DNA of 64,000 nt from Escherichia coli. GTDB lineage: Bacteria > Pseudomonadota > Gammaproteobacteria > Enterobacterales > Enterobacteriaceae. The stretch lies in assembly GCF_044324785.1 (NCBI RefSeq), contig NZ_CP172127.1. One strand, written 5' to 3'. Below the pieces are notes generated by a model, which saw only the letters and a program-made list of their open reading frames with translations, ran no database searches and was not told the DNA's origin. Positions 1 through 12,722 of this stretch are shown one piece after another (position 1 is the first letter of the stretch; every line of letters begins with the position of its first letter). The translations under genes were made by a program, and so were the position numbers.

Positions 1-650
1 GTTTCTGGTGCGTTTATGGCGTGATATGCCCCCCGCTTTGCTGAACCTGTCAGGAGTCTTTTTTCACCATGTGAGGTAATAGTCTGTGCTGCTGTTACTG
101 CGCCGGATTTATCCACCAGCGCCAGCAACAGAGATCCATCGGGCAACACGGGGAATGTAAAATCACCTACCCCTTTCGCAACCAGATAATCAGATTTGCC
201 GTTTACAGCCTTTCTGCGCATGTCATCAAACTGACGGGAAAACGTATCCCGTCTTTGTTGTTCGTCCTTCTCTGCCCTTTTCAGGCGCTCCTGTTCGCGT
301 CGCTGGCGCTCGGTTTCCAGTTGTTCCCGTTTCTGGCTGGTGGCTTCTGGTGTTTCCGTTGTCCGGTAATCAATACCCAGAACATCAGCGGCAAGAAGCG
401 CCGCCTCTGTTGTGTCGCAGTTATTTACGCGTTTAATTAAATCCAGCCCATCACCAGCGCCGCACTGATTACAGATGAAGCTACCGCGCCCGTTGTCATC
501 GAACCGGAATCGATCTTTGCCCCCACATGCAGGGCAGGGAGCATGACGGCGCGGAGAGTCAGGGACATTTATGTTCAGGCAGCCCAGCACATGAGGCCAG
601 TTGTTTTCAGACGCACTGATAACCTGACGGATAAGATCAATGTTTCGCAT
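1..650 (-). CDS. P4-family DNA primase, N-terminal part only (gene continues beyond window start)
   Basis: Manual translation of the minus strand from ATG at 650-648 gives MRNIDLIRQVISASENNWPHVLGCLNINVPDSPRRHAPCPACGGKDRFRFDDNGRGSFICNQCGAGDGLDLIKRV...; the CPxCGGxDRFRF...CNQCGxGDG pattern is the zinc-ribbon of P4 alpha/TraC-type primases. No stop before position 1. Confidence 0.6.
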   Translation of the reverse strand, partial: MRNIDLIRQVISASENNWPHVLGCLNINVPDSPRRHAPCPACGGKDRFRFDDNGRGSFICNQCGAGDGLDLIKRVNNCDTTEAALLAADVLGIDYRTTETPEATSQKREQLETERQRREQERLKRAEKDEQQRRDTFSRQFDDMRRKAVNGKSDYLVAKGVGDFTFPVLPDGSLLLALVDKSGAVTAAQTITSHGEKRLLTGSAKRGAYHAINAPE

Positions 651-1008
651 CACCGTACCCCACGTGGTCTATAGCGTTTGCGATATGGCTAACCAGCATC
701 TGCCACTTGGTTATTCCGTAATCAGTCAGCATGCCATCATTGTTTAGCCACATATCAAATTCAGCGGTTGTCGCAAGTTTCCACTTATCGCCGTGGACAG
801 TCCTCATTGCTGGGTACATGAATGCGCAAATCAGATCACAAACATCTGACGGCTTCAGAGATGTAGTAATGGTGCGTCCCTCTGGCGTCTGAATTGCCAT
901 TTTCTCTTCACCAGTAGAATGAAGGTTATGAATCCACACAGCACCAGCAATCTTTGCCACCTGCTCTCCGATTGCGGAGCTAAGCGCCATTTCTGCATTT
1001 TCACGCAT
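637..1008 (-). CDS. hypothetical protein (mobile element, 123 aa)
   Basis: ORF in same-strand tightly packed gene string; start/stop overlaps with neighbours suggest an operon. No recognisable motif. Confidence 0.45.
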   Translation of the reverse strand: MRENAEMALSSAIGEQVAKIAGAVWIHNLHSTGEEKMAIQTPEGRTITTSLKPSDVCDLICAFMYPAMRTVHGDKWKLATTAEFDMWLNNDGMLTDYGITKWQMLVSHIANAIDHVGYGDAKH

Positions 1009-1342
1009 GAGAACCTCCCGCTACAGTTGCGCCCATGTCATTAACCATGCTTTGCCATATCTCACGCCCGACGTCAGTCAATCCGTCCTTAGTGACGCAA
1101 CGTTCAAGAAGCTCGATCCCCACGGTTTCCCACTGCGGGTAGAACACTTTCATGGCTGCCAGTGTGTAGCTATCGATCAGGCTGCGAACGCCTTTTACTC
1201 CATTGACGATTTCCACACGGACGGCCTCGCCGTCCGCATCAACCATGAAATAGTCCCCGCCGCTGGTGGAGGTAATGTGGTTATACAGTGCCGACGCATA
1301 CTTATTTGCCAGCGCATTCAGTCGGAAATTTTTAGTAATCAT
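1001..1342 (-). CDS. hypothetical protein (mobile element, 113 aa)
   Basis: ORF overlapping the downstream ORF start by 8 nt, typical of translational coupling. No recognisable motif. Confidence 0.45.
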   Translation of the reverse strand: MITKNFRLNALANKYASALYNHITSTSGGDYFMVDADGEAVRVEIVNGVKGVRSLIDSYTLAAMKVFYPQWETVGIELLERCVTKDGLTDVGREIWQSMVNDMGATVAGGSHA

Positions 1343-1352
1343 GGCTCCATCC

Positions 1353-1955
1353 TCAGTGCGTCACTGGTTCCGCTGGCATGCCGTTTTCATTCAGTTCAGC
1401 TATAAAGCTGTTGTGAAGTTCAGCAAGCGTTTCACGCCCAAATGGAGTCAGTGCTCCTTGTTCCACATCCATCATGGCTCTGTAGAAAATGATGGCGCGT
1501 TCTGTGCCAGACTCGATGCCAAAACGTTCTATCATCGCGCCCTCAATGTTGTTTGCCATAGCGAGGCGCTCTGCTACTGGATACAGCGGCATGGCGACGA
1601 TGCCGTTGGAATAAACAGCCACTTCGGAAGGATTGCCAGTATCATCAATGATGCTGACAGTGCCGTTTTCCTCTCTCATTTCCAGCATGAATACTGTTGC
1701 GATCAGCCATCTCCACATAATGACGTTATGCTGTGATGTGTAATCGAAATATCCCTGGTTGCCGCCATCGGCAATAGCGAGATGTATTGACATACCTTCA
1801 TCTGGTTTATCGTCATAATCCCCGGCATCCAGACGATTTACGGCATCAATATATGAGATGGCCTCAACGCGTTCTGTCATGCCATCGTTGCTGCGGTACA
1901 TGATGTTTACGCCGTCAGGCGTTGCTTCTGCATGGAAAGTTAAGAAATTATTCAT
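1353..1955 (-). CDS. hypothetical protein (mobile element, about 200 aa)
   Basis: ORF 1353-2060 trimmed to the ATG at 1955-1953 (MNNFLTFHAEATPDG...) which lies 2 nt after the stop of the upstream 73-aa ORF; longer start would overlap that gene. Confidence 0.4.
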   Translation of the reverse strand: MNNFLTFHAEATPDGVNIMYRSNDGMTERVEAISYIDAVNRLDAGDYDDKPDEGMSIHLAIADGGNQGYFDYTSQHNVIMWRWLIATVFMLEMREENGTVSIIDDTGNPSEVAVYSNGIVAMPLYPVAERLAMANNIEGAMIERFGIESGTERAIIFYRAMMDVEQGALTPFGRETLAELHNSFIAELNENGMPAEPVTH

Positions 1956-2169
1956 GTTTCGCTTCGCCTGAATGATTCTGTAACTCATATTTGCCCAACA
2001 ATTCGTCCGCTTCCTGAATAGCTTCTGGTACGCCATTGAGCAGTGACATAACCGCGCCAATCATTAACTTGTCTCTGTTGCTGGGGCTGGCCCCTTCAAG
2101 CCAGAACCCTAAAACAGTCTGAACCTGTTCGATGCGACATTGCGCTTCAATGAGCTGGATGTTGGTCAT
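1948..2169 (-). CDS. hypothetical small protein (73 aa)
   Basis: ORF in operon-like array, start overlaps upstream ORF stop (2166-2169). Confidence 0.4.
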   Translation of the reverse strand: MTNIQLIEAQCRIEQVQTVLGFWLEGASPSNRDKLMIGAVMSLLNGVPEAIQEADELLGKYELQNHSGEAKHE

Positions 2170-2429
2170 TTCGCACTCTCCACATCGATTAAACCGATAT
2201 CTATCAGGGAGGTAACTTTTTGTAGCCAGCTATTGATTACTGTCGCCTGTTCCCCTCCCACCGAGGGAACAATCTCATTCATCACATGAACCAGACCTGT
2301 GCGCGCTCTGGTAAGCCGTTCAGTCGCGCAATCTGCGGGAGTGAATGTGTCTGGATATGGCTCTTCACGCCCCAGCAATGATTCAATTTCCAGCTCACAC
2401 GGATGACGATAAATTAAGTTGATATTCAT
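2166..2429 (-). CDS. hypothetical small protein (87 aa)
   Basis: ORF in operon-like array; 4-nt overlap with upstream ORF. Confidence 0.4.
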   Translation of the reverse strand: MNINLIYRHPCELEIESLLGREEPYPDTFTPADCATERLTRARTGLVHVMNEIVPSVGGEQATVINSWLQKVTSLIDIGLIDVESAK

Positions 2430-2620
2430 TTTTCACCCCCAAGAATTACCAGCTCGGCACGGGCATCGTTAACCAAAGATGAGCACGCTTTAATCGCATC
2501 CACGACATCAGCAGCGTCCATTTCTTCAGCCGAAAGACTGACAGCAACCAGGACAGCCGCTGCTTGCTCGATTAATTGAAGTGCGGACGTAAGGCGAGGG
2601 GTATTAATTGAGTTATTCAT
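2426..2620 (-). CDS. hypothetical small protein (about 64 aa)
   Basis: ORF 2426-2677 trimmed to ATG at 2620 ([10 protein letters not shown]...) preceded by a G-rich Shine-Dalgarno-like stretch. Confidence 0.35.
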   Translation of the reverse strand: MNNSINTPRLTSALQLIEQAAAVLVAVSLSAEEMDAADVVDAIKACSSLVNDARAELVILGGEK

Positions 2621-3680
2621 TGGTTGCCCCCGTTTTTCCTGGCATTTCGCCACCTTCCAGCAGGAAATGAACGTCACGAACGGCGAGATCCAATATCGCG
2701 AGTAACGCCTTCAGTCTTTCGTCTCGTGAGGGAGAGTTGCTCACCAGAATGTCGTTAATCACTTCTGTCAGTGTGATGATCTGGCTTGTGCGTTCGAGGG
2801 GATCCATATGCACATCGTAGGTTTTAATCATGAGCCACCTCCATGCGGATACGACCAGCAAAAAAGCAGACGTGATCGCGCACCAGAGAACGGCGAGCAT
2901 CGCGTTCAGACTCGGCAGCAATATGATGAATTTTGGCGGTAATTGTCGGGCAATCGCGGCGAACTGCGGCGATAATCCAGATAAATTGCGGTTTTTGGGT
3001 AGGGGTAGTAGCCAGCATGTGGCAGCCTCCATTCGATAGCATGTAACGCTACCACCGGAAACGCCAATTTCGCTGGTGGTAGCCCAGACAGGGTTGGCGT
3101 AACCGGCTCGAATGGATACCGGCGCTTCCGAAGAAGCCCCTGCCTGAGCCACCATTGATTGACAAAGGCGCTGGATTATACACCAACGCCCAAAAAATGG
3201 GTGAGTCAGACCTACGACATAAAAAAAGACGCTCGGCGCGTCATATGTCGCCATTCGATTTACCAGGACGCCAATCCCGGCACCCGTTTTATGAGGTGCC
3301 TTATAACCATAAACCGTGTTGCCGCATAACGGCAAGCTCTTTTTTATGGACTCCGAAAACTCGCTATTGGAAGCACCAGATGCACAGTACATCGCGCTCA
3401 TTTCGTTAACGTCACGCACGTGGACGAATGTTTTTGTGGAGTCACTACACGAGCGGAAGACATCATCTACGACCAGAAATTTTCTGGCGCAGCCGCTGAC
3501 CTTCTCAACGCTAACACCATCGACCGTAATTTCTGACATAGTTAAGGCATCCGCTCCCACCACCAGAAAATGATAAACTTTGCTTGTATCTGCTGTATTA
3601 ATGCCAGACTTTGCTGTCATATTGCTGGATTTTGGCGACATACCTGCCAGTGAAAATGTCTTCTTCTGGACGGTTAGCAT
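2613..3680 (-). CDS. hypothetical protein; gene structure uncertain (355-aa ORF, possibly two genes)
   Basis: Single uninterrupted ORF with a GGAGG Shine-Dalgarno 7 nt before its ATG at 3680; however a second strong GGAGGTG ribosome-binding site precedes an internal ATG at 2831 and the middle of the ORF has a W/C-rich composition atypical of real protein. Confidence 0.3.
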
Positions 3681-3856
3681 TTGTTAACCTCCGCGAACTC
3701 CTTCATGAAACGTGCCAGCGGTTGTACGCATGGCGATTGATACCCGTCGCGATAAAACGTCACTCGGTTGTGAGACACGCTTTCGACAGTAACGAGTGCT
3801 CCGTGGGCATCTTTGTAGCGTTTTTGAGGTTGTGGTGTTCCTGTCGGCTTAAACAT
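3674..3856 (-). CDS. hypothetical small protein (about 60 aa)
   Basis: ORF 3674-3943 trimmed to internal ATG (MFKPTGTPQPQK...) so that it does not run deep into the upstream gene; stop abuts the next ORF start. Confidence 0.3.
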   Translation of the reverse strand: MFKPTGTPQPQKRYKDAHGALVTVESVSHNRVTFYRDGYQSPCVQPLARFMKEFAEVNKC

Positions 3857-4682
3857 GGACCGCCTCCAGACGCTTGGCGAGCCAGCGTTGCGACAGGCGG
3901 GTGAGTTCTCCTTTGCGCTGCTCATATTCCATGCCCATATCAATTAACGTGATATTGGTGCTTTCGAGATATGAGAGGTGCTCAAGCTGTTCTGCGTTCA
4001 TATGGTCGCGAGGTTCGCCAGAATAGCCATTTATCCGCGCCCACTGCTTAGCAGTTAGCCCACCAAGAACGATACGAGAAATCATATTGCTCTCGTTTGT
4101 GTAGTGGTGTTGCTGCGTCGTTTTCCCCTGCTCGGCACGGGCCATATTCAGCGCATCGCACATTGGCTTAAAGTTGTTTGCGGCACTAATACGGGCTTTT
4201 AGCTGGCGACGATAGCGGGCGGCGATTTCAGGCACGCTACGCTGTAATTCTTCCTCGCACTGGATGAAATAACGACGGATAGCGCGACCCTGATCATTGC
4301 GTTCGATCATTGCCAGTTCTTTCGCCATTCCGACACTTAACAGATAGTCTTTGCCGGGTCTGCCAGACTGCTTAATCTTGCTGTAAGCCGCGCCATTCGG
4401 GCTTTTCCCCAAATTTGGGGAAATTGTTTTATGGACTGAGTAATCGTGCCCAATGGTGAAGTCATATTCAGAGATGCGATCAGTGATCCATGTAGAGAAG
4501 TCTTTTCCCACGCCCAACGCTTTGTGTAACGCTTTTGCGCTAACAATATTGGTTTCACGCCCACCGATATGACCAGGAATAACCGGGACAATTGCGGCAA
4601 ATTCATTACCGTTAATTGTGCCCAGAGAGGCGTTCAGATGAGGGGCGGCCTCAGAAATTAATCTGCTTTTTTCGATGTTCAT
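3849..4682 (-). CDS. phage antirepressor-like protein (AntA N-terminal / KilA-C-like C-terminal)
   Basis: 277-aa ORF; sequence features reminiscent of prophage antirepressor families (…AKALHKALGVGKDFSTWITDRI… and C-terminal …ELAMIERNDQGRAIRRYFIQCEEEL…). Family call from memory, not searched. Confidence 0.5.
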   Translation of the reverse strand: MNIEKSRLISEAAPHLNASLGTINGNEFAAIVPVIPGHIGGRETNIVSAKALHKALGVGKDFSTWITDRISEYDFTIGHDYSVHKTISPNLGKSPNGAAYSKIKQSGRPGKDYLLSVGMAKELAMIERNDQGRAIRRYFIQCEEELQRSVPEIAARYRRQLKARISAANNFKPMCDALNMARAEQGKTTQQHHYTNESNMISRIVLGGLTAKQWARINGYSGEPRDHMNAEQLEHLSYLESTNITLIDMGMEYEQRKGELTRLSQRWLAKRLEAVHV

Positions 4683-4694
4683 TTTCAGTCTCCG

Positions 4695-5126
4695 TTAGGC
4701 GGCGTTAAACGCGTCCGGGTAGAGTTTCAGAATGTCGGCAATTTCCTGCTGAGAAAGTCCGTTGTGATCATTTATGTTCGCAAGATGGTTAACATGAGTG
4801 ATCACTTTCAGAACATCACCACGGCAGGAGAAACGGTAGCGGAGGTGTGTTCCGATACCATCAGGATTCTTTTCGTCGATACGCTCCAGAATGATTCCAA
4901 GCTGGCGTTCTAACTCTGTTGCATAGTTACGACCAGAAGACAGACGGCAGTAGCGAAGAATGTCATTTTCTGTCCATCCCTCTATACCAGTACGCAGCAT
5001 ATAGACTCTGGCACGATGTTTTTTCGGTGTGCGCTTTGGTGCTTGAAGGGATTTTTTCAGGGGCGTAACATCAGACACGCGAATATCTGAATTAGCCGCC
5101 TGTAATGGGCGGTTTTTCTTTTCCAT
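4695..5126 (-). CDS. hypothetical protein (mobile element, 143 aa), basic N-terminus
   Basis: ORF immediately downstream of alpA-like gene with start/stop overlap at 5126. Confidence 0.45.
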   Translation of the reverse strand: MEKKNRPLQAANSDIRVSDVTPLKKSLQAPKRTPKKHRARVYMLRTGIEGWTENDILRYCRLSSGRNYATELERQLGIILERIDEKNPDGIGTHLRYRFSCRGDVLKVITHVNHLANINDHNGLSQQEIADILKLYPDAFNAA

Positions 5127-5329
5127 CAGGCCACCTTCCCGCGGCGTTCTGCCAGCCAGTTGTGAATCTCAACCGCATCAAACGCAGTTATTTTTTCTCC
5201 CAGCTTTACTGGACGTGGTAGTGAACCGTTTCTTACTTTACGGTCGATGGTGGATACACTAACGCCCAGCAATTCAGCCAGGCGAAAGCGTCTGATATAG
5301 CCTTTTGTAGGGATAGTGTCGATGTTCAT
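5126..5329 (-). CDS. alpA: AlpA-family prophage transcriptional regulator / excisionase-like HTH protein
   Basis: 67-aa ORF MNIDTIPTKGYIRRFRLAELLGVSVSTIDRKVRNGSLPRPVKLGEKITAFDAVEIHNWL...; size and HTH pattern match AlpA/Vis-like proteins of P4/CP4-type elements. Confidence 0.7.
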   Translation of the reverse strand: MNIDTIPTKGYIRRFRLAELLGVSVSTIDRKVRNGSLPRPVKLGEKITAFDAVEIHNWLAERRGKVA

Positions 5330-5435
5330 GATTCCCGTAACCTCTTAGCGATAGTTGTTGCTTCGTTACGAGAAATCTAGCTGTATAGATATACAATGAA
5401 AAGGTACTGTAATTTTGCAGTACCTCTATAGTAAG

Positions 5436-6386
5436 TTAACTATCCACTTTGCCATTTGCCGCAGATCGTAGATGTTTAAGAATTACATCTTCATTAGTTA
5501 TCATAAGTGGTGGAACTTCGTCTAAATGACGAACAAGACAGTCACGCCACTTCTCAGGGCTTATTTCTTTCCTTTCTCCCCTGCATTCATTTGGATACTT
5601 ACTAAGTATATAAATTGCAGATTTTAATAGTTTCTCCCTATTGACTGCGTACCGTTCGGCACGTTTATTAACTTTTAGCGTATTTATATCATTGGATAAC
5701 TTGTTTGCGGATGGTTTGTGCATGGGTCTGTCATAAATATATTTTCCTCCATTTATAAGAAGATTGTATTCATAGTCAGTTATATACATTTTGTTTCGGC
5801 TTATTTCATACCAGCCGTCAATATAAAAAGCTCCGATTTCATAATTATTCGATTTGCTAAACTCGTCACATCTCGGAGGTATCAGTTCGCATACAGAGAT
5901 CTCCCAATCATCCCATTCTGATAGCTCCCGCTCATCGTTATCTATGAACGCAGGCGGAATTGCTAATAGACCGCTCCATCTTTCGATATCTCTTTCATCC
6001 TTCCCAACATTGTATCGCTCTATAACTGAGAAATGTTCTGATTTGTATGAAAACCTCATAAAATACATATAGTTATCGCTATTTTTATAATCAAGTGATG
6101 ATAAGCCATATGATTCGAGATTATCTGCCTTATTGCTCAGATCAAGGAGATAATTCTCATGTGCTGCTTTTGTATCTATATGAAAAATACTATCTGTTTC
6201 AACTTTAAGTAATTCTGGCTCGGCATCTTCATTTTTTGGGTAATGGTAAAACAATTCAATAGGTGGAATTTTTATACATATTTCTAAAACCCCAATTGCT
6301 GCATAGTGTATTAAATCGGATACTTCACATCCGGCCAGTTTGGCTGCTTTATCCAAAGAATAATATTTATGCGCAGGTAATTTCAT
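5436..6386 (-). CDS. hypothetical cargo protein (316 aa), AT-rich, between integrase and alpA
   Basis: Long ORF with markedly AT-rich codon usage compared with flanking genes; N-terminus has an HTH-like stretch (SLDKAAKLAGCEVSDLIHYAAIG); acidic, Y/N/K-rich remainder without recognisable catalytic motif. Confidence 0.55.
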   Translation of the reverse strand: MKLPAHKYYSLDKAAKLAGCEVSDLIHYAAIGVLEICIKIPPIELFYHYPKNEDAEPELLKVETDSIFHIDTKAAHENYLLDLSNKADNLESYGLSSLDYKNSDNYMYFMRFSYKSEHFSVIERYNVGKDERDIERWSGLLAIPPAFIDNDERELSEWDDWEISVCELIPPRCDEFSKSNNYEIGAFYIDGWYEISRNKMYITDYEYNLLINGGKYIYDRPMHKPSANKLSNDINTLKVNKRAERYAVNREKLLKSAIYILSKYPNECRGERKEISPEKWRDCLVRHLDEVPPLMITNEDVILKHLRSAANGKVDS

Positions 6387-6404
6387 TATGAATCTTTCCT
6401 CTCA

Positions 6405-7658
6405 TCATGCTCTGATTGGCGTTACGTTGTAGTCTTTTCCGCTTTCCAGTGCCACCAGCAGATCTGCCCACTGTGCTAGTGCTGCTTTACGCTCATCAAA
6501 ATACTGATGACGGTTATAAATCCCCTCTACGCCCTTAATGCGATGATTGAGGCATCGTTCCGCCACGACAGGATCAACACCCAATGCTGCTAAATGAGTA
6601 CGTGCGGTGCGTCGGAAGTCGTGAATCGTGAAATTAGGCACATCCGGAATTTCGGCGCGAACCTTAGCCAGTGCTACGGGTAAAGTGCTTTCCTGAATAT
6701 GTGGGATCATTCTGTTTTGCATCTTCCTGGCCGGAAGCACCCATGCGCTATTACATGAAAAGGTGTGTAGCTCTCTCAACCATTCAACGGCTGGGGAAGG
6801 TAGAGGTATATCAATAGGGTCTCCGTTTTTGCTGCGTTCTTCCGGCAAATGCCATACCGCACCATCTAAATCAAACTCTTCCCATCGTGCGGCGCATAAC
6901 TCCATCTTACGAACGCATAGTGCCAGCAATAGTTTAAATGTCAGTTCGTTTTGGCGGCTGAATCCTTTTGCGGTGCGCATAGCCTCGAATAGTCTGATAA
7001 GCTCATCGCGAGTTAGCCAACGGTCGCGGGAAACCTCTTTACCACCAGCATCAGATACTTCAAACGCTGAACAAGGGTTTATCTCCAGAGCGTGGCGTTT
7101 TATCCCATAGTCAAAGATACGGCGTGTCCAGCGCAATACATCTGTTGCTATCGTTGGTGCTCCTCGGTCAACGATACCTTTCAACATGTCGTCAATGTGG
7201 CGTGGCTTAACGTCCTCTACCTTCATATGCCCAATGCAGGGGTTAATATCCTTATCAATTCTCCGGCGAAGGATATCGGGATGTTTCCATCTCGGAAGTA
7301 TCTGGCGCTCGAAGTATTCGGAGGCCAGATCTGAAACACGCATGGCGTTTTTCTCAGCCTCCATTTTTGCCAGTGCTTCAGCTTTTCGTTCCTGTTTCTC
7401 TGCTGCTACGTCATAGCCAAGAGCAACTCTGGCTGACAGCTCTTTTGCTGTTTCTCTGGCTTTTGATAGTGACAGTTCGGAGTAAGAGCCTATAACCATA
7501 GCCCGCTGCTTTCCTGCGAGCTTATAGCGGAATCGCCAGAACGGGACTGTGTAGTTTTTGGGGTAGCAAATATAAAGGCCGTTGCCGTCTGCCTTGCCAT
7601 CAAATCTGTCTCCCGCCTTTATCCATGCGCGGATCTGCATATCTGTGAGTTTTGGCAT
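6405..7658 (-). CDS. int: tyrosine site-specific integrase, P4-type
   Basis: ORF 6405-7742 trimmed to MPKLTDMQIRAWIKAGDRFDG... (typical P4-integrase N-terminus); C-terminal catalytic region contains ...HDFRRTARTHLAALGV... and ...GIYNRHQY... (R/H-x-x-R/Y signature). Confidence 0.85.
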   Translation of the reverse strand: MPKLTDMQIRAWIKAGDRFDGKADGNGLYICYPKNYTVPFWRFRYKLAGKQRAMVIGSYSELSLSKARETAKELSARVALGYDVAAEKQERKAEALAKMEAEKNAMRVSDLASEYFERQILPRWKHPDILRRRIDKDINPCIGHMKVEDVKPRHIDDMLKGIVDRGAPTIATDVLRWTRRIFDYGIKRHALEINPCSAFEVSDAGGKEVSRDRWLTRDELIRLFEAMRTAKGFSRQNELTFKLLLALCVRKMELCAARWEEFDLDGAVWHLPEERSKNGDPIDIPLPSPAVEWLRELHTFSCNSAWVLPARKMQNRMIPHIQESTLPVALAKVRAEIPDVPNFTIHDFRRTARTHLAALGVDPVVAERCLNHRIKGVEGIYNRHQYFDERKAALAQWADLLVALESGKDYNVTPIRA

Positions 7659-7686
7659 TGCGAATACCTGAATATCGAATATGGGT

Positions 7687-7738
7687 GTGTACATAAAGCA
7701 ATGTACATGAAAGTCATTATGTACACCTCTATGTACAC
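7687..7738. promoter_or_regulatory. four direct copies of ATGTACA-like motif just upstream of int: candidate integrase arm-type binding sites / att region
   Basis: gtgtacat (7687-7694), atgtacatg (7701-7709), atgtacac (7719-7726), atgtacac (7731-7738) visible directly in sequence. Confidence 0.35.
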
Positions 7739-7783
7739 GCATATTGTGCGCTTTGTTGCGTCGTTATGATAGCTCATGATAAC

Positions 7784-7820
7784 AAAAAAGCCCGACATTT
7801 CGCGGGCTTTGTGGTTTTTT
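7784..7820. terminator. bidirectional rho-independent terminator downstream of yicC
   Basis: aaaaaagcccg-acatttcg-cgggctttgtggtttttt: GC stem flanked by A-run and T-run. Confidence 0.5.
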
Positions 7821-7846
7821 GCTGCTTGGTGATTTTTACTGATAGC

Positions 7847-8710
7847 TTATTCGATATTCTGGATCTGCTCGCGCATCTGCTCAATCAACACTTTCAGCTC
7901 GATGGCGGAGTTTGTCACTTCGGCATTGATAGACTTCGAAGCAAGAGTGTTCGACTCGCGGTTGAACTCCTGCATCATAAAGTCCAGACGACGGCCAACC
8001 GCTTCTTTTTTCTTCAGAATGTTGTAGGTCTCTTTGACATGCGCTTCGAGGCGATCCAGTTCTTCGGCAACGTCAATTCGTTGTGCCAGCAGAACCAACT
8101 CCTGCTCCAGACGGTTGTTTTCCAGTTGCACCTGAGCATCTTCCAGCTTCGCGACCAGACGCTCACGCTGCCATTGCAGGATTTCCGGCATATGGGCGCG
8201 GACTTTGACCACTTCGGCGGTGACGCCTTCCAGACGCTGCTCGATCAATGCTTTCAGCGCCTGACCTTCGGTTTCGCGCGCGACGATAAAGTCGTCCAGC
8301 GTACCATCCAACGCCGCGAGAATTTCAGCGGCAATCGCGTCGAGATCCTGCTCCTGGGCTGCCATCACGCCCGGCCAGCGTAGAATATCAACCGGGTTGA
8401 TTTCCCCTTCGTCACTCTGCATTTTTACCCAGTTCGCGGCAGTTACCAGCTGTTTAGCCAGTTTTTCGTTAAGGATCAGCTCACCTTGTGCGCTAACATC
8501 TGGCTCATAACGCAGGGTACATTCCACTTTACCGCGCGTCAGGCGAGAACGAATACGCTCGCGAACGACAGGTTCAAGGCTACGGAACTGCTCCGGCAGA
8601 CGAAAGTAAGTTTCCAGATAACGCTGGTTTACCGAGCGCATTTCCCAGGTTGCGCTCCCCCATTCACCCTTGATTTCACGCCGGGCGTAGGCGGTCATAC
8701 TGCGGATCAT
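7847..8710 (-). CDS. yicC: YicC family stress-induced protein
   Basis: 287-aa ORF MIRSMTAYARREIKGEWGSATWEMRSVNQRYLETYFRLPEQFR... recognised as YicC; conserved position next to rph. Confidence 0.9.
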   Translation of the reverse strand: MIRSMTAYARREIKGEWGSATWEMRSVNQRYLETYFRLPEQFRSLEPVVRERIRSRLTRGKVECTLRYEPDVSAQGELILNEKLAKQLVTAANWVKMQSDEGEINPVDILRWPGVMAAQEQDLDAIAAEILAALDGTLDDFIVARETEGQALKALIEQRLEGVTAEVVKVRAHMPEILQWQRERLVAKLEDAQVQLENNRLEQELVLLAQRIDVAEELDRLEAHVKETYNILKKKEAVGRRLDFMMQEFNRESNTLASKSINAEVTNSAIELKVLIEQMREQIQNIE

Positions 8711-8836
8711 AGACGTTCCTGTTTATAAAAGGAGAGGTGGAAGGATTATAGCCATCGATGCCTTGTCAGGATAGGAATAACCGCCGGAAGTCCGTATAAT
8801 GCGCAGCCACATTTGTTTCAAGCCGGAGATTTCAAT

Positions 8837-9553
8837 ATGCGTCCAGCAGGCCGTAGCAATAATCAGGTGCGTCCCGTTACCCTGACTCGTAACTATACAA
8901 AACATGCAGAAGGCTCGGTGCTGGTCGAATTTGGCGATACCAAAGTATTGTGTACCGCCTCTATTGAAGAAGGCGTGCCGCGCTTCCTGAAAGGTCAGGG
9001 CCAGGGCTGGATCACCGCAGAGTACGGCATGCTGCCACGTTCTACCCACACCCGTAACGCGCGTGAAGCGGCGAAAGGTAAGCAGGGTGGACGCACCATG
9101 GAAATCCAGCGTCTGATCGCCCGTGCTCTTCGCGCGGCAGTAGATTTGAAAGCGCTGGGTGAGTTCACTATTACGCTGGACTGCGACGTGCTTCAGGCTG
9201 ATGGTGGCACGCGTACCGCGTCGATTACGGGTGCCTGCGTGGCGCTGGCAGATGCGCTACAGAAGCTGGTGGAAAACGGCAAGCTGAAAACCAACCCGAT
9301 GAAAGGGATGGTAGCCGCGGTTTCTGTCGGGATTGTGAACGGCGAAGCGGTTTGCGATCTGGAATACGTTGAAGACTCAGCCGCAGAGACCGACATGAAC
9401 GTAGTGATGACCGAAGACGGGCGCATCATTGAAGTGCAGGGGACGGCAGAAGGCGAGCCGTTCACCCATGAAGAGTTACTCACCTTGTTGGCGCTGGCCC
9501 GAGGGGGAATCGAATCCATTGTAGCGACGCAGAAGGCGGCGCTGGCAAACTGA
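8837..9553 (+). CDS. rph: ribonuclease PH (full length)
   Basis: ORF trimmed to [42 protein letters not shown]...; 238 aa, intact C-terminus. Confidence 0.9.
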
Positions 9554-9560
9554 TTTTTAA

Positions 9561-9586
9561 GGCGACTGATGAGTCGCCTTTTTTTT
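9561..9586 (+). terminator. rph-pyrE intercistronic attenuator hairpin with T8 tract
   Basis: ggcgact-gatg-agtcgcc followed by tttttttt, read directly; matches the known UTP-sensitive pyrE attenuator location. Confidence 0.7.
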
Positions 9587-9618
9587 GTCTGTAGAAAAGT
9601 AAGATGAGGAGCGAAGGC

Positions 9619-10260
9619 ATGAAACCATATCAGCGCCAGTTTATTGAATTTGCGCTTAGCAAGCAGGTGTTAAAGTTTGGCGAGTTTACGCTGAAGTCCG
9701 GGCGCAAAAGCCCCTATTTCTTCAACGCCGGGCTGTTTAATACCGGGCGCGATCTGGCACTGTTAGGCCGTTTTTACGCTGAAGCATTGGTGGATTCCGG
9801 CATTGAGTTCGATCTGCTGTTTGGCCCTGCTTACAAAGGGATTCCGATTGCCACCACAACTGCCGTGGCGCTGGCGGAGCATCATGACCTGGACCTGCCG
9901 TACTGCTTTAACCGCAAAGAAGCAAAAGACCACGGTGAAGGCGGCAATCTGGTCGGTAGCGCGTTACAAGGACGCGTAATGCTGGTGGATGATGTGATCA
10001 CCGCCGGAACGGCGATTCGCGAGTCGATGGAAATTATTCAGGCCAATGGCGCGACGCTTGCTGGCGTGTTGATTTCGCTCGATCGTCAGGAACGGGGGCG
10101 CGGCGAGATTTCGGCAATTCAGGAAGTTGAGCGTGATTACAACTGCAAAGTGATCTCTATCATCACCCTGAAAGACCTGATTGCTTACCTGGAAGAGAAG
10201 CCGGAAATGGCGGAACATCTGGCGGCGGTTAAGGCCTATCGCGAAGAGTTTGGCGTTTAA
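9619..10260 (+). CDS. pyrE: orotate phosphoribosyltransferase
   Basis: [40 protein letters not shown]...; PRTase motif [13 protein letters not shown]. Confidence 0.95.
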
Positions 10261-10295
10261 AAATATGCGCTGTGCAGGGTTTTTGCTGTGCGCAG

Positions 10296-10326
10296 CGTGA
10301 TGCGCTTTAAGATATCGTGTTAATCT
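10296..10326 (+). promoter_or_regulatory. possible retron promoter (extended -10 TGt-TAATCT, weak -35)
   Basis: TG at 10318-10319 followed by taatct at 10321-10326, about 6 nt upstream of the predicted msr 5' end at 10332. Weak match; could also be read-through from pyrE. Confidence 0.25.
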
Positions 10327-10331
10327 GCTTT

Positions 10332-10525
10332 CGCCAGCAGTGGCAATAGCGTTTCCGGCCTTTTGTGCCGGGAGGGTCGGCGAGTCGCCGACTTAACGCC
10401 AGTAGTATGTCCATATACCCAAAGTCGCTTCATTGTACCTGAGTACGCTTCGCGTACGTCGCGCTGACGCGCTCAGTACAGTTACGCGCCTTCGGGATGG
10501 TTTAATGGTATTGCCGCTGTTGGCG
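10332..10525 (+). ncRNA. msr-msd: retron msr-msd non-coding RNA (template and primer for msDNA), bounded by a1/a2 inverted repeats
   Basis: a1 10332-10348 (cgccagcagtggcaata) pairs with a2 10509-10525 (tattgccgctgttggcg) as a 17-bp RNA duplex with two G-U wobbles; unpaired G at 10349 in the context AUAG-C is the candidate branching G; msr hairpins ccggc-cttttgt-gccgg (10355-10371) and gtcggcg-agt-cgccgac (10376-10392); msd palindromic block 10434-10480. Confidence 0.6.
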
Positions 10526-10557
10526 CCTCTTTTGGCCGCCGTGATGTGGAGAGTGGA

Positions 10558-11517
10558 ATGGATGCTACCCGGATAACCCTTCTGGCGCTCGATTTGTTCG
10601 GCTCGCCGGGCTGGAGCGCCGATAAAGAAATACAGCGGCTGTATGCGCTCAGTAATCATGCCGGACGCCATTACCGACGCATTATTCTTTCTAAACGCCA
10701 CGGTGGTCAGCGGCTGGTGTTAGCCCCTGATTACTTGCTCAAAACCGTACAGCGCAACATTCTTAAGAACGTTCTTTCACAATTTCCGCTTTCCCCTTTT
10801 GCTACAGCCTACCGACCAGGTTGCCCAATTGTCAGCAACGCGCAGCCTCACAGCCAACAGCCACAAATACTGAAACTCGATATCGAAAACTTTTTCGATA
10901 GTATTAGCTGGTTACAGGTCTGGCGTGTGTTTCGCCAGGCCCAGTTGCCACGTAATGTGGTAACCATGCTGACCTGGATTTGTTGTTATAACGACGCGTT
11001 ACCGCAGGGGGCACCAACTTCGCCAGCCATTTCCAATCTTGTGATGCGCTGTTTTGATGAGTGCATCGGGGCATGGTGCCAGGCACGAGGAATTACCTAC
11101 ACCCGCTACTGCGATGACATGACTTTTTCAGGTCACTTCAATGCCCGCCAGGTTAAAAATAAAGTGTGCGGATTGTTAGCGGAGATGGGCCTGAGCCTCA
11201 ATCAACGCAAAAGCTCCCTGATAGCTGCCTGTAAGCGCCAGCAGGTAACCGGGATTGTTGTTAATCACAAACCACAGCTTGCCCGCGAAGCGCGGCGGGC
11301 GCTGCGTCAGGAAGTACACTTATGCCAAAAATATGGCGTCATTTCGCATCTTAGTCGTCGTGGTGAACTTGATCCTTCATGCGATCTCCATGCACAGGCA
11401 ACGGCGTATCTTTATGCTTTGCAGGGAAGAATAAACTGGCTATTGCAAATCAATCCTGAGGATGAGGCCTTTAAACAGGCGAGGGAAAGTGTAAAGCGAA
11501 TGCTGTTGGCATGGTAA
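10558..11517 (+). CDS. ret: retron-type reverse transcriptase (319 aa)
   Basis: Start at ATG 10558 preceded by GGAGAG; contains RT motifs ...LPQGAPTSPAISNL... and ...ITYTRYCDDMTFSG... (YxDD box); size typical of retron RTs with no extra fused domain. Confidence 0.9.
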   Translation: MDATRITLLALDLFGSPGWSADKEIQRLYALSNHAGRHYRRIILSKRHGGQRLVLAPDYLLKTVQRNILKNVLSQFPLSPFATAYRPGCPIVSNAQPHSQQPQILKLDIENFFDSISWLQVWRVFRQAQLPRNVVTMLTWICCYNDALPQGAPTSPAISNLVMRCFDECIGAWCQARGITYTRYCDDMTFSGHFNARQVKNKVCGLLAEMGLSLNQRKSSLIAACKRQQVTGIVVNHKPQLAREARRALRQEVHLCQKYGVISHLSRRGELDPSCDLHAQATAYLYALQGRINWLLQINPEDEAFKQARESVKRMLLAW

Positions 11518-11525
11518 GAAAAGCG

Positions 11526-11547
11526 TCAGGCAGACGTTTCTGCCTGA
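11526..11547. terminator. hairpin between convergent RT and slmA genes
   Basis: tcaggcaga-cgtt-tctgcctga perfect 9-bp stem in the 43-bp gap. Confidence 0.45.
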
Positions 11548-11560
11548 ACGTTTGGGAGAA

Positions 11561-12157
11561 TTACTGCAACTGTGCGGCAATTAGCGGCCAGCGGGCGTCA
11601 AAATCATCCGTCGGGCGGTATTTAAACTCGCTGCGGACAAAGCGTGACAGCATACCTTCACAGAAGGCCAGGATCTGGCTTGCCAGCAGGGTTTCATCGG
11701 TGGTGTAACCTTCACCCTCACGCATTCTCTTTTCGCGCAATACCTGACGCAACTGCGCTTCAATACGCTCGAACAGCTGGTTGATGCGCCCTTGCAGGCG
11801 ATCCTGTTCAAACATTAGTGCATGACCAGTGAGGATGCGGGTCAGGCCAGGATTACGCTCACCAAAACCGAGAAGCAGCAACACAATCAGACGCAGGCGC
11901 GCTGTGGTGTCCTTCTCATCTTTCAGAATCAGATTGATGCGAGTAATCAGGCTATCTTCGATAAACTCAATCAGGCTATCGAACATGCGGGTCTTACTGG
12001 GGAAGTGGCGATACAGTGCCGCTTCGGAAACGCCGACAGAGGCGGCCAGTTTTGCCGTCGTGATACGTTGGCTTCCATCGCTGGATTCCAGCATCAGCGC
12101 CAGAGACTGAAGTATTTCCTCGCGACGGTTCCTTTTCGCAGTTTGTTTTTCTGCCAT
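11561..12157 (-). CDS. slmA: nucleoid occlusion factor SlmA (TetR family)
   Basis: ORF trimmed to [52 protein letters not shown]... Confidence 0.9.
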
Positions 12158-12263
12158 GTTACAAAATACCCCTGAAAATAAGCACTTGCCAGGCGGCACC
12201 CACGCTATGACCGCAAACGAAATGTTTGCGGCTATGTTATGACGTTATTCGGATGCGTATGTG

Positions 12264-12722
12264 TTACTGACGACCAGAGTGACCAAAGCCGCCTTCACCG
12301 CGGTCGGTGGCGTCGAAATCTTCCACCAGATTAAATTCAGCCTGTACTACCGGAACAAAAATCATCTGGGCGATGCGTTCGCCAGGTTGAATGGTGAAGC
12401 TGTCCTGACCACGGTTCCACACGGAAATCATCAACTGGCCCTGATAGTCGGAATCGATCAATCCTACCAGGTTACCAAGCACGATACCGTGCTTATGTCC
12501 CAATCCGGAGCGCGGCAGCATCATTGCCGCCAGTGAAGGATCGGCAATATGAATCGCCAGCCCGGTCGGAACCAGCGTAGTGTCACCCGGAGCCAGTTCT
12601 ACGGCGTCGTCGAGACAGGCACGCAGGTCAAGTCCGGCAGAGCCAGAGGTGGCATAAGTCGGGAGCGGAAATTCCTTCCCAACGCGCGGGTCCAGAATCT
12701 TAACGTCGATTTTTTTCATCAT
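12264..12722 (-). CDS. dut: dUTP diphosphatase
   Basis: [37 protein letters not shown]... recognised. Confidence 0.9.

Follow-up and report, generated by a model that had tools for sequence, protein, structure and literature searches.

Gene X, the subject of this study, is one allele of a position-locked, hypervariable gene that lies between the integrase gene (int) and alpA of AlpA-type phage satellites. It occupies positions 5436-6386 on the minus strand of a 64,000-nucleotide stretch of Escherichia coli DNA (contig NZ_CP172127.1 of assembly GCF_044324785.1), which we refer to as the window, and is flanked on one side by a tyrosine integrase gene and on the other by a gene for a 67-aa AlpA-like protein, both in the same orientation (Table 1). 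From its genomic context and from published precedent, we tentatively propose that X is an integrase-linked factor that licenses satellite excision or induction, or sets its specificity, rather than a piece of free cargo.

To judge by its sequence, X is a genuine coding gene, because its homologues range from 97% down to 29% identity, its ratio of nonsynonymous to synonymous divergence (dN/dS) among close alleles lies between 0.07 and 0.35, and its C-terminal protein sequence is conserved despite saturated synonymous sites. All database relatives with a stated source organism are from Enterobacterales. About half of the 61 relatives, none of which has a name, match only the last 75-120 residues (53-82% identity), despite being of nearly equal length. 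The first-pass annotation of the window had described an AT-rich gene for an acidic protein rich in tyrosine and asparagine that could be placed in no family, and this description holds throughout. The GC content of X is 0.356 (0.287 at third codon positions, GC3), against 0.491 for int, 0.495 for alpA, 0.47-0.50 for the two genes beyond and 0.489 for the whole window; the gap between X and its neighbours is far beyond chance. The encoded protein has an isoelectric point (pI) of 5.33 and contains 7.3% Tyr and 6.6% Asn. Pfam, NCBIfam and PADLOC returned no match to it, and PHROGs gave a single weak one to an unnamed family (residues 1-44, E 0.019). The relatives likewise remained unassigned in the first three libraries, with weak hits at most in PHROGs. 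At E ≤0.001, neither X nor any of 50 members of its family matched a Pfam model, including Phage_AlpA and HTH_17, and a literature search by protein accession found no papers on X.

In the alignments and the AlphaFold2 model, X is divided into an N-terminal module, an acidic beta-rich middle, a linker and a basic helical C-terminus. The N-terminal strand-helix-helix-strand spans residues 8-39, with predicted local distance difference test (pLDDT) scores above 90. In this predicted topology and in the hydrophobic spacing of residues 7-40, the module resembles the small winged-helix proteins AlpA, Vis and Xis. X differs from these in being five times longer, in having a second helix without basic residues, in lacking a Pfam match and in its hhalign comparison with AlpA proteins, which is in register but not significant (probability 5%, E 0.0076). 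The helix-turn-helix (HTH)-like N-terminus seen in the first-pass annotation fits the predicted topology but is weakly supported, and DNA binding by this module is an unproven candidate property.

The middle domain is strongly acidic across the family, with a median pI of 4.34 and values below 5 in 44 of 50 members. The C-terminal domain has the opposite charge (pI 9.26 for the last 76 residues of X; family median 9.05) and contains 18 invariant positions within residues 241-313, among them the motifs ERxAxNRE ... LSKYPxECRG ... ISPEKW ... LRxAxNG. A profile of this domain retrieved only 44 clusters among 1.84 billion representative proteins, and in full-length matches (~200-380 aa) the X-type domain is C-terminal. 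A Foldseek search with the X model gave 157 structural relatives, the best 50 of which are all uncharacterised gammaproteobacterial proteins of similar length.

The body of the protein and its ends evolve at different rates. Between pairs of alleles, 35-50 of the ~72 third codon positions of the C-terminal domain differ, compared with 6-20 second positions; the proportion of synonymous differences (pS) is saturated at 0.70-0.99, while that of nonsynonymous differences (pN) is 0.10-0.30. Conservation thus acts on the protein rather than on a DNA element, and the alleles are old. The dominance of third-position differences and the saturated pS also rule out that the C-terminal conservation stems from an element in the DNA itself, for instance an internal promoter. 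Closely related 316-aa alleles have dN/dS values of 0.21-0.35 for the middle domain and mostly 0.07-0.13 for the N- and C-terminal parts, with 0.02-0.08 for int and alpA; for int and the C-terminus taken together, the values are 0.04-0.10. No pairwise estimate exceeds 1. Between alleles that are not closely related, the identity of the middle domain drops to ~13-25%, in backbones whose integrases are 87-99% identical. In 40 complete E. coli genomes (95-100% nucleotide identity), the gene has kept an unbroken reading frame. These substitution patterns indicate that X is functional and that its body evolves several times faster than its ends.

We inspected X-family loci in four species-representative genomes (Kosakonia, Intestinirhabdus, Tatumella and an Enterobacteriaceae metagenome-assembled genome), in 12 IMG/VR contigs and in three contigs with distant family members. 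The order int, X, alpA on one strand was found in 4/4, 12/12 and 2/3 of these, respectively. In every inspected family locus, alpA lies directly downstream of X and is co-directional with it; the third distant contig is without an adjacent int. The order persists where Int and AlpA are less than 30% identical to the versions in the window, and nearly all of the ~30 relatives inspected, which represent several genera, conform to it. In the inspected loci and the collections searched, the family was not found outside int-X-alpA modules, be it in defence islands, prophages or plasmids. A tblastn search of 50,697 phage records gave no relative of X, and the single match in a plasmid collection is a 4.9-Mb, chromosome-sized record. 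Because the family is confined to one position beside the same two genes, across very different integrases, it behaves as part of a module. At one distant homologue (L013, 3270-5454), X is preceded by opposite-strand genes and not by int. Among their products are a protein with HTH_3 and Peptidase_M78 domains (ImmA/IrrE-like) and a member of the PyocinActivator family, and three large genes without annotation lie further out. Cargo may have been inserted upstream of X there, with X staying beside alpA.

The window covers only the int-proximal ~7.8 kb of the island that carries X. The whole island can be seen in E. coli SA186 (99.9% identical over the locus), where it fills ~17 kb between yicG and yicC. 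Its first part consists of int, X, alpA, a 143-aa gene, the antA/antB antirepressor genes, DUF4222 and an ash/icd region; the rest comprises four small genes, a TOPRIM-DUF927 primase gene, DNA-ejection-like genes and PerC. The DNA-ejection-like genes suggest P22-like or Kapi1-like phages as helpers. A close relative is EcCIMP1, a phage-inducible chromosomal island (PICI) of E. coli whose excision and transduction by phage Kapi1 depend on alpA and int (PMC11773190). The two islands have the same gene order, their 143-aa and AntA proteins are 97-98% identical, and EcCIMP1 also shares DUF4222, ash/icd, the TOPRIM-DUF927 primase, the DNA-ejection-like genes and PerC. EcCIMP1 differs in its integrase (29% identity; tRNA-Thr site) and its AlpA (33%), and it has no X homologue. 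In place of X, only a 427-nt spacer separates int from alpA there, with one small open reading frame (ORF) of doubtful status, EcCIMP1_002. EcCIMP1_002 and its spacer were considered as a remnant of X and rejected, as there is no similarity in any frame. By its gene content, the island in the window is an EcCIMP1-like, PICI-like satellite inserted beside yicC, rather than a P4-like one.

We surveyed the int-alpA slot in yicC-site islands of 5,426 complete E. coli genomes; roughly 290 E. coli genomes have an island at this site. Every inspected island holds exactly one slot gene, of 216-321 aa, and a known or multi-gene defence system occupies the slot in none. The 316-aa allele, X itself, occurs in 40 genomes. 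A 321-aa allele, which has only the C-terminal domain in common with X, was found in 76 genomes, and a 281-aa allele, a distant X (profile E 1e-19), in 37. Another 21 genomes carry a 293-aa allele of a separate family, whose N-terminus alone is weakly alike (hhalign E 6.7e-4, probability 27%). The most frequent, at 111 genomes, is a 216-aa allele (phrog_30524) whose gene overlaps int by 4 nt. Three or more of these five classes form a single protein family with a common architecture. The 293-aa family shows no sequence relation to X beyond the N-terminus. It is part of a large group of proteobacterial proteins that are uncharacterised, and its top-50 Foldseek list has no entry in common with that of X. 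The 293-aa family does share with X the order of predicted secondary-structure elements and the charge pattern of an acidic body and a basic tail.

The slot genes differ greatly between islands whose int (~99% identical) and alpA (~98%) are nearly the same, and the distance from int to alpA stays at ~0.85-1.07 kb in the sampled rows. Compared with SBF22 or C8, the window has 99% identical Int and 98-99% identical AlpA, with slot proteins that share the C-terminus only or almost nothing. Compared with XJ5.2, X is nearly identical (dS 0.02-0.06), yet int and alpA have dS values of 1.27 and 0.94. STIN_95 shows the opposite pattern, with a dS of 0.05 for int and 0.33-0.46 for X. Where the allele differs wholly, the exchange begins at the int stop codon and extends to a point ~45 nt short of the alpA start. 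The slot alleles are thus swapped as cassettes between near-identical backbones. A gene of the 216-aa family also abuts int, ahead of an alpA-like regulator, in the 16.5-kb record LR881103.1 ('Escherichia phage vB_KppS-Ant'; locus L036, 5123-7868). This record has the layout of a capsid-forming PICI, with int, the slot gene, the alpA-like regulator and a primase gene followed by capsid, portal and terminase genes, and the class of int-alpA slot genes therefore extends to the capsid-forming PICI type.

The first-pass annotation had regarded the gene as a candidate defence protein in a variable cargo slot of a P4/CP4-like satellite. The variability of the slot is borne out by the survey. The view of the slot as a cargo hotspot is not, as every inspected island has a single gene of 216-321 aa there, three or more of the five allele classes are one family, and the family is confined to int-X-alpA. 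Nor is the P4 analogy supported: the published P4 hotspot lies between int and psu (PMC10803314), and the island in the window is EcCIMP1/PICI-like. The annotation had also held that conserved presence in all related elements, combined with a lack of phenotype in phage challenge, would speak against defence cargo; a gene is indeed always present at the slot, but its sequence is not conserved.

The spacer between int and X is too short for a separate promoter, so that a joint int-X transcript is implied. In the other alleles, apart from the overlapping 216-aa one, the spacer measures 95-115 nt. In the 321-, 281- and 293-aa alleles, it contains the Rfam int-alpA RNA motif (RF02996, 60-66 bits), whose outer stem shows a compensatory change (GATTGAGCC/GGCTCAATC versus GACCGGAAC/GTTCCGGTC). 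The 316-aa allele in the window has lost this motif, as an Rfam scan found none in its spacer (6387-6404); the Kosakonia orthologue appears to retain it. Ten nucleotides past the X stop codon, a hairpin followed by TTTT looks like a terminator that would close the int-X unit ahead of alpA. Its stem is maintained in other alleles through compensatory changes, and a consensus terminator scan did not call it. A LexA box within this hairpin was ruled out by inspection, since the spacing is wrong (CTG-N8-CAG).

The last ~45 nt before alpA are conserved in all yicC-site islands, and the part upstream of them varies with the slot allele. Allele-specific alpA operators (TGTATATCTATACA in the window, TGTTCATATATGTACA in the 321-aa allele) were considered and are not used as evidence here, because they are absent from the orthologous Kosakonia and Intestinirhabdus loci. 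The palindromes near the alpA promoter are more likely to be AlpA or Int sites, as they resemble the TGTACA repeats upstream of int. Positions 7688, 7702, 7720 and 7732 each carry such a hexamer, all within the int promoter or att-proximal region (7688-7737), with the yicC terminator nearby at 7787-7810. The TGTACA-related sequences TATGTACAG and TCTATACAG occur in the alpA promoter of the 321-aa allele and of the window. The repeats and their relatives are candidate AlpA or Int arm-type binding sites. The alpA leader can form a hairpin (CGTAAC-N23-GTTACG, 5336-5370, minus strand) that encloses the ribosome-binding site AAGAGG (5341-5346), and Tatumella, other distant loci and islands with the 216-aa allele have equivalent stems of other sequence upstream of their alpA genes. 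Such stems suggest that alpA is regulated at translation or by attenuation, or else that a protein binds the palindrome.

Table 1. Position of gene X, its predicted domains and the surrounding features of the int-alpA region (window coordinates unless a locus is named).
Feature	Position	Strand	Basis or remark
Gene X (316 aa + stop)	5436..6386	-	ATG-to-stop ORF; 61 homologues, none named; AlphaFold2 pLDDT 78.5
X residues 1-45, predicted strand-helix-helix-strand module, AlpA/Xis-like in shape only	6252..6386	-	pLDDT 93-96
X residues 46-215, acidic beta-rich, fast-evolving middle domain, pI 4.45	5742..6251	-	Allele identity, dN/dS, pI
X residues 216-240, low-confidence linker	5667..5741	-	pLDDT 32-36 for residues 220-239
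X residues 241-316, near-invariant basic helical C-terminal domain, family hallmark	5439..5666	-	Alignments, pN/pS, profile search
Tyrosine integrase gene, int (417 aa as annotated in relatives)	6405..7658, extendable upstream to 7742	-	99% identical in islands with other slot alleles
int-X spacer, 18 nt, with GAGAGGAAAG ribosome-binding site	6387..6404	-	Sequence
Hairpin AGGTACTGCAA-AA-TTACAGTACCT, 10-bp stem, then TTTT, 10 nt past X stop	5402..5425	-	Regional fold z -4.4
Putative alpA promoter and leader	5330..5401	-	Weak hexamers TTTTCA (5397-5402) and TAGATT (5374-5379); palindrome; leader hairpin
Palindrome TGTATATCTATACA in putative alpA promoter	5382-5395	-	Between weak -35/-10-like hexamers
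alpA (67 aa), activator/excision regulator; helix-turn-helix regulator in annotation	5126..5329	-	ORF; role known from EcCIMP1 and EcCICFT073
int-alpA RNA motif RF02996, related E. coli islands	L017 1956-2022; L019 1657-1723		

The position of X has a published counterpart. In Vibrio PICMI satellites, the int-alpA interval is occupied by a gene termed iolg or icg (integrase-overlapping or integrase-contiguous gene), which falls into 13 families of unknown function among 35 PICMI subfamilies (PMC10803314). It is required for helper-induced excision of PICMI115, as shown genetically for PICMI115 only, and it has been proposed that int and iolg are constitutive and alpA is phage-induced (PMC10803314). 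X and iolg/icg are alike in their int-alpA position, strand and contiguity with int, in their presence as one gene per element, in their unknown function and in their many unrelated-looking families. The 216-aa allele overlaps int just as iolg does, whereas X itself, with its gap to int, has the icg-type arrangement. The elements differ in that the PICMI hosts are Vibrionaceae and their elements measure ~6 kb, compared with ~17 kb for the enterobacterial island of X. The three-part architecture with a conserved C-terminal module is undescribed for IOLG, and X is likened to iolg/icg by position alone. By this analogy, X appears closest in precedent to the iolg/icg class, and the int-X unit would match the arrangement proposed for PICMI. 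The protein family of X is undescribed in the libraries and literature searched, while the positional class is already published.

Two further int-proximal genes invite comparison. The cryptic prophage CP4-57 of E. coli K-12 encodes a 318-aa uncharacterised protein, YfjH, between intA and alpA, as X is; yfjH differs in lying on the opposite strand, divergent from alpA, and YfjH was ruled out as a homologue of X (BLASTP E 0.32). Stl of the Staphylococcus aureus pathogenicity islands (SaPIs) is the master repressor of PICIs of Gram-positive cocci; it is encoded next to int and is extremely diverse, and its variable part recognises a helper-phage protein, which couples induction to the helper. 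The stl gene is transcribed divergently from the operon it represses, and Stl has a bona fide HTH. Stl and X have in common that they are satellite-encoded and int-proximal, with a highly variable domain that in X could set helper specificity. They differ in that X has the same orientation as alpA, with a hairpin between the two genes, and in that the palindromes of its alpA promoter are unconserved among orthologous alleles. Neither sequence nor fold similarity of X to Stl was found.

Homology gives no function for X, and the argument for its role therefore rests on context and precedent. Since iolg is required for excision of PICMI115 and the position is filled by many unrelated-looking families in PICMIs, we favour an integrase-linked factor of the satellite life cycle. 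Such a role is also supported by the constant order of int, X and alpA, by the coupling of X to int with a hairpin ahead of alpA, by purifying selection that is strongest in the C-terminal domain, by the presence of one slot gene of similar size throughout and by the acidic body and basic tail, which are retained even in the 293-aa family. In the integrated state of the island, X would be produced alongside Int, and it would act with Int and AlpA to license or specify excision or induction upon infection by a helper phage. The variable acidic body may provide the surface for recognition of a partner from phage or host, whereas the conserved C-terminal domain may serve as a common output module that binds nucleic acid or a partner protein. 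The mechanism by which alpA of Gram-negative satellites is activated by helper phages is unexplained, with no repressor identified (PMC6092414), which leaves an open role that X could fill. In a more specific and rather speculative version, which we regard as unlikely as it stands, the X family and perhaps other slot alleles are helper-phage sensors that restrain or permit alpA-dependent excision. Expressed constitutively along with the integrase, each allele would recognise a different helper-phage protein through its acidic variable domain. This would amount to Stl-like logic with a fold that is unrelated to Stl and undescribed, and it would account for the position lock as well as for the hypervariability.

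Several observations weigh against a life-cycle role. EcCIMP1 excises and transfers without an X-like gene, and X is therefore no universal requirement. The type of the X C-terminus does not co-vary with that of Int or AlpA (Spearman rho ~0.2, not significant): an Int of 78% identity may accompany an X C-terminus of 28%, and an Int of 27% a C-terminus of 56%. This argues against a co-evolving contact with either protein, and a C-terminal domain that touches Int or AlpA is unsupported. The presumed recognition helix of the N-terminal module is the one without basic residues, and the likeness of this module to AlpA is not significant. The palindromes near the alpA promoter are not common to orthologous alleles (L007 versus the window, L008 versus L009). 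Finally, AT-richness and cassette exchange suit conflict or cargo genes equally well.

These last features lead to the alternative that X alone provides anti-phage defence, abortive infection or superinfection exclusion, as a single-gene, moron-like cassette expressed with int from the integrated island. In that case, the variable acidic body would be the sensor of a phage component and the conserved C-terminal domain the effector. We consider this possible, if on the whole somewhat doubtful. The low GC and GC3 values of X fit it, as do synonymously saturated alleles between near-identical int and alpA and the same allele between diverged backbones, which are typical of conflict genes. So do the hairpin terminator of its own that follows X, the independence of X from Int and AlpA type, and the accessory look of a gene without which EcCIMP1 functions. 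Satellites are known to carry defence genes (PMC10803314), and EcCIMP1 adds superinfection immunity against its helper (PMC11773190). The profile and fold searches point the other way. Among 15 slot and family proteins, PADLOC recognised no defence model save for one weak match of the 321-aa allele (PDC-S31, E 0.002), which we regard as noise, as it is out of register and was not reproduced in nine other members. PADLOC 2.0 dates from 2023, however, and newer or undescribed systems lie outside its scope. Neither Pfam nor the fold search recognised an effector domain (nuclease, TIR, HEPN, pore or similar) in X. Mobile defence genes normally occur in many contexts. The X family has been seen in int-X-alpA only, never in defence islands, prophages or plasmids, and this and the lack of any known or multi-gene defence system at the slot speak against the idea. 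Taken together, the notion of defence cargo in a P4-type hotspot is only partly supported.

An improbable alternative is that X acts in counter-defence or establishment, for instance as an acidic DNA-mimic-type inhibitor of host restriction or of a DNA-binding protein of a helper or competitor phage, which would aid the island or its helper at entry. Its strongly acidic, aromatic-rich body joined to a basic tail would suit such an inhibitor, as would the rapid diversification of the family and the fact that EcCIMP1-type islands modulate helper biology. At 316 aa and with a beta-rich fold, X is unlike the known small DNA mimics, and the fold search gave no structural match to Ocr, ArdA or other inhibitors. 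Moreover, co-transcription with int in the integrated state is not the timing to be expected of an entry function, and none of the analyses point specifically to such a role. That X is a decaying or non-functional remnant kept between two useful genes, as its foreign composition and its lack of a function or named family might suggest, is very improbable and contradicted by the selection analysis, given an intact frame in all 40 E. coli genomes, low dN/dS, a C-terminus conserved across genera and a confidently predicted structure.

Other features of the window were noted in passing. Within the island, a C4 antisense RNA (Rfam RF01695, 79.5 bits) lies at 3072-3159 and an isrK Hfq-binding RNA (RF01394, 67.1 bits) at 3222-3299, both on the minus strand. 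Both fall within a long, oddly composed ORF (2613-3680; 'ash family protein' in relatives), upstream of the antirepressor region, and this part of the satellite is probably a control module like the c4/icd/ant type of P1/P7. A 12-nt repeat, ATTATGTACACC (window position 7716), has a further copy close to the opposite end of the SA186 island and is a possible marker of the attachment (att) core. Outside the island, a 323-aa reverse transcriptase ORF (10546-11517, plus strand) is located between pyrE and slmA, which are adjacent in SA186 and SBF22 without a reverse transcriptase gene. Because of its PADLOC match (RT_Ec107-like, 5.5e-132), it is identified, at the level of sequence, as a retron Ec107-type insertion; an Rfam search of window positions 1-12500 (E ≤0.1) gave no msr/msd RNA.

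X is thus a variant of the positional iolg/icg class in enterobacterial PICI-like satellites, distinguished by its conserved C-terminal module and by a five-allele series at one site. Enterobacterial satellites carry at int-alpA a large unannotated family with a conserved output-like domain and a hypervariable body, subject to cassette exchange. If X sets helper specificity or controls excision, the family would provide a handle on satellite induction and host range; if X is a defence protein instead, it would found a new single-gene family that brings its own allelic series. Under either reading, the five natural alleles at one E. coli site form a ready-made swap system.

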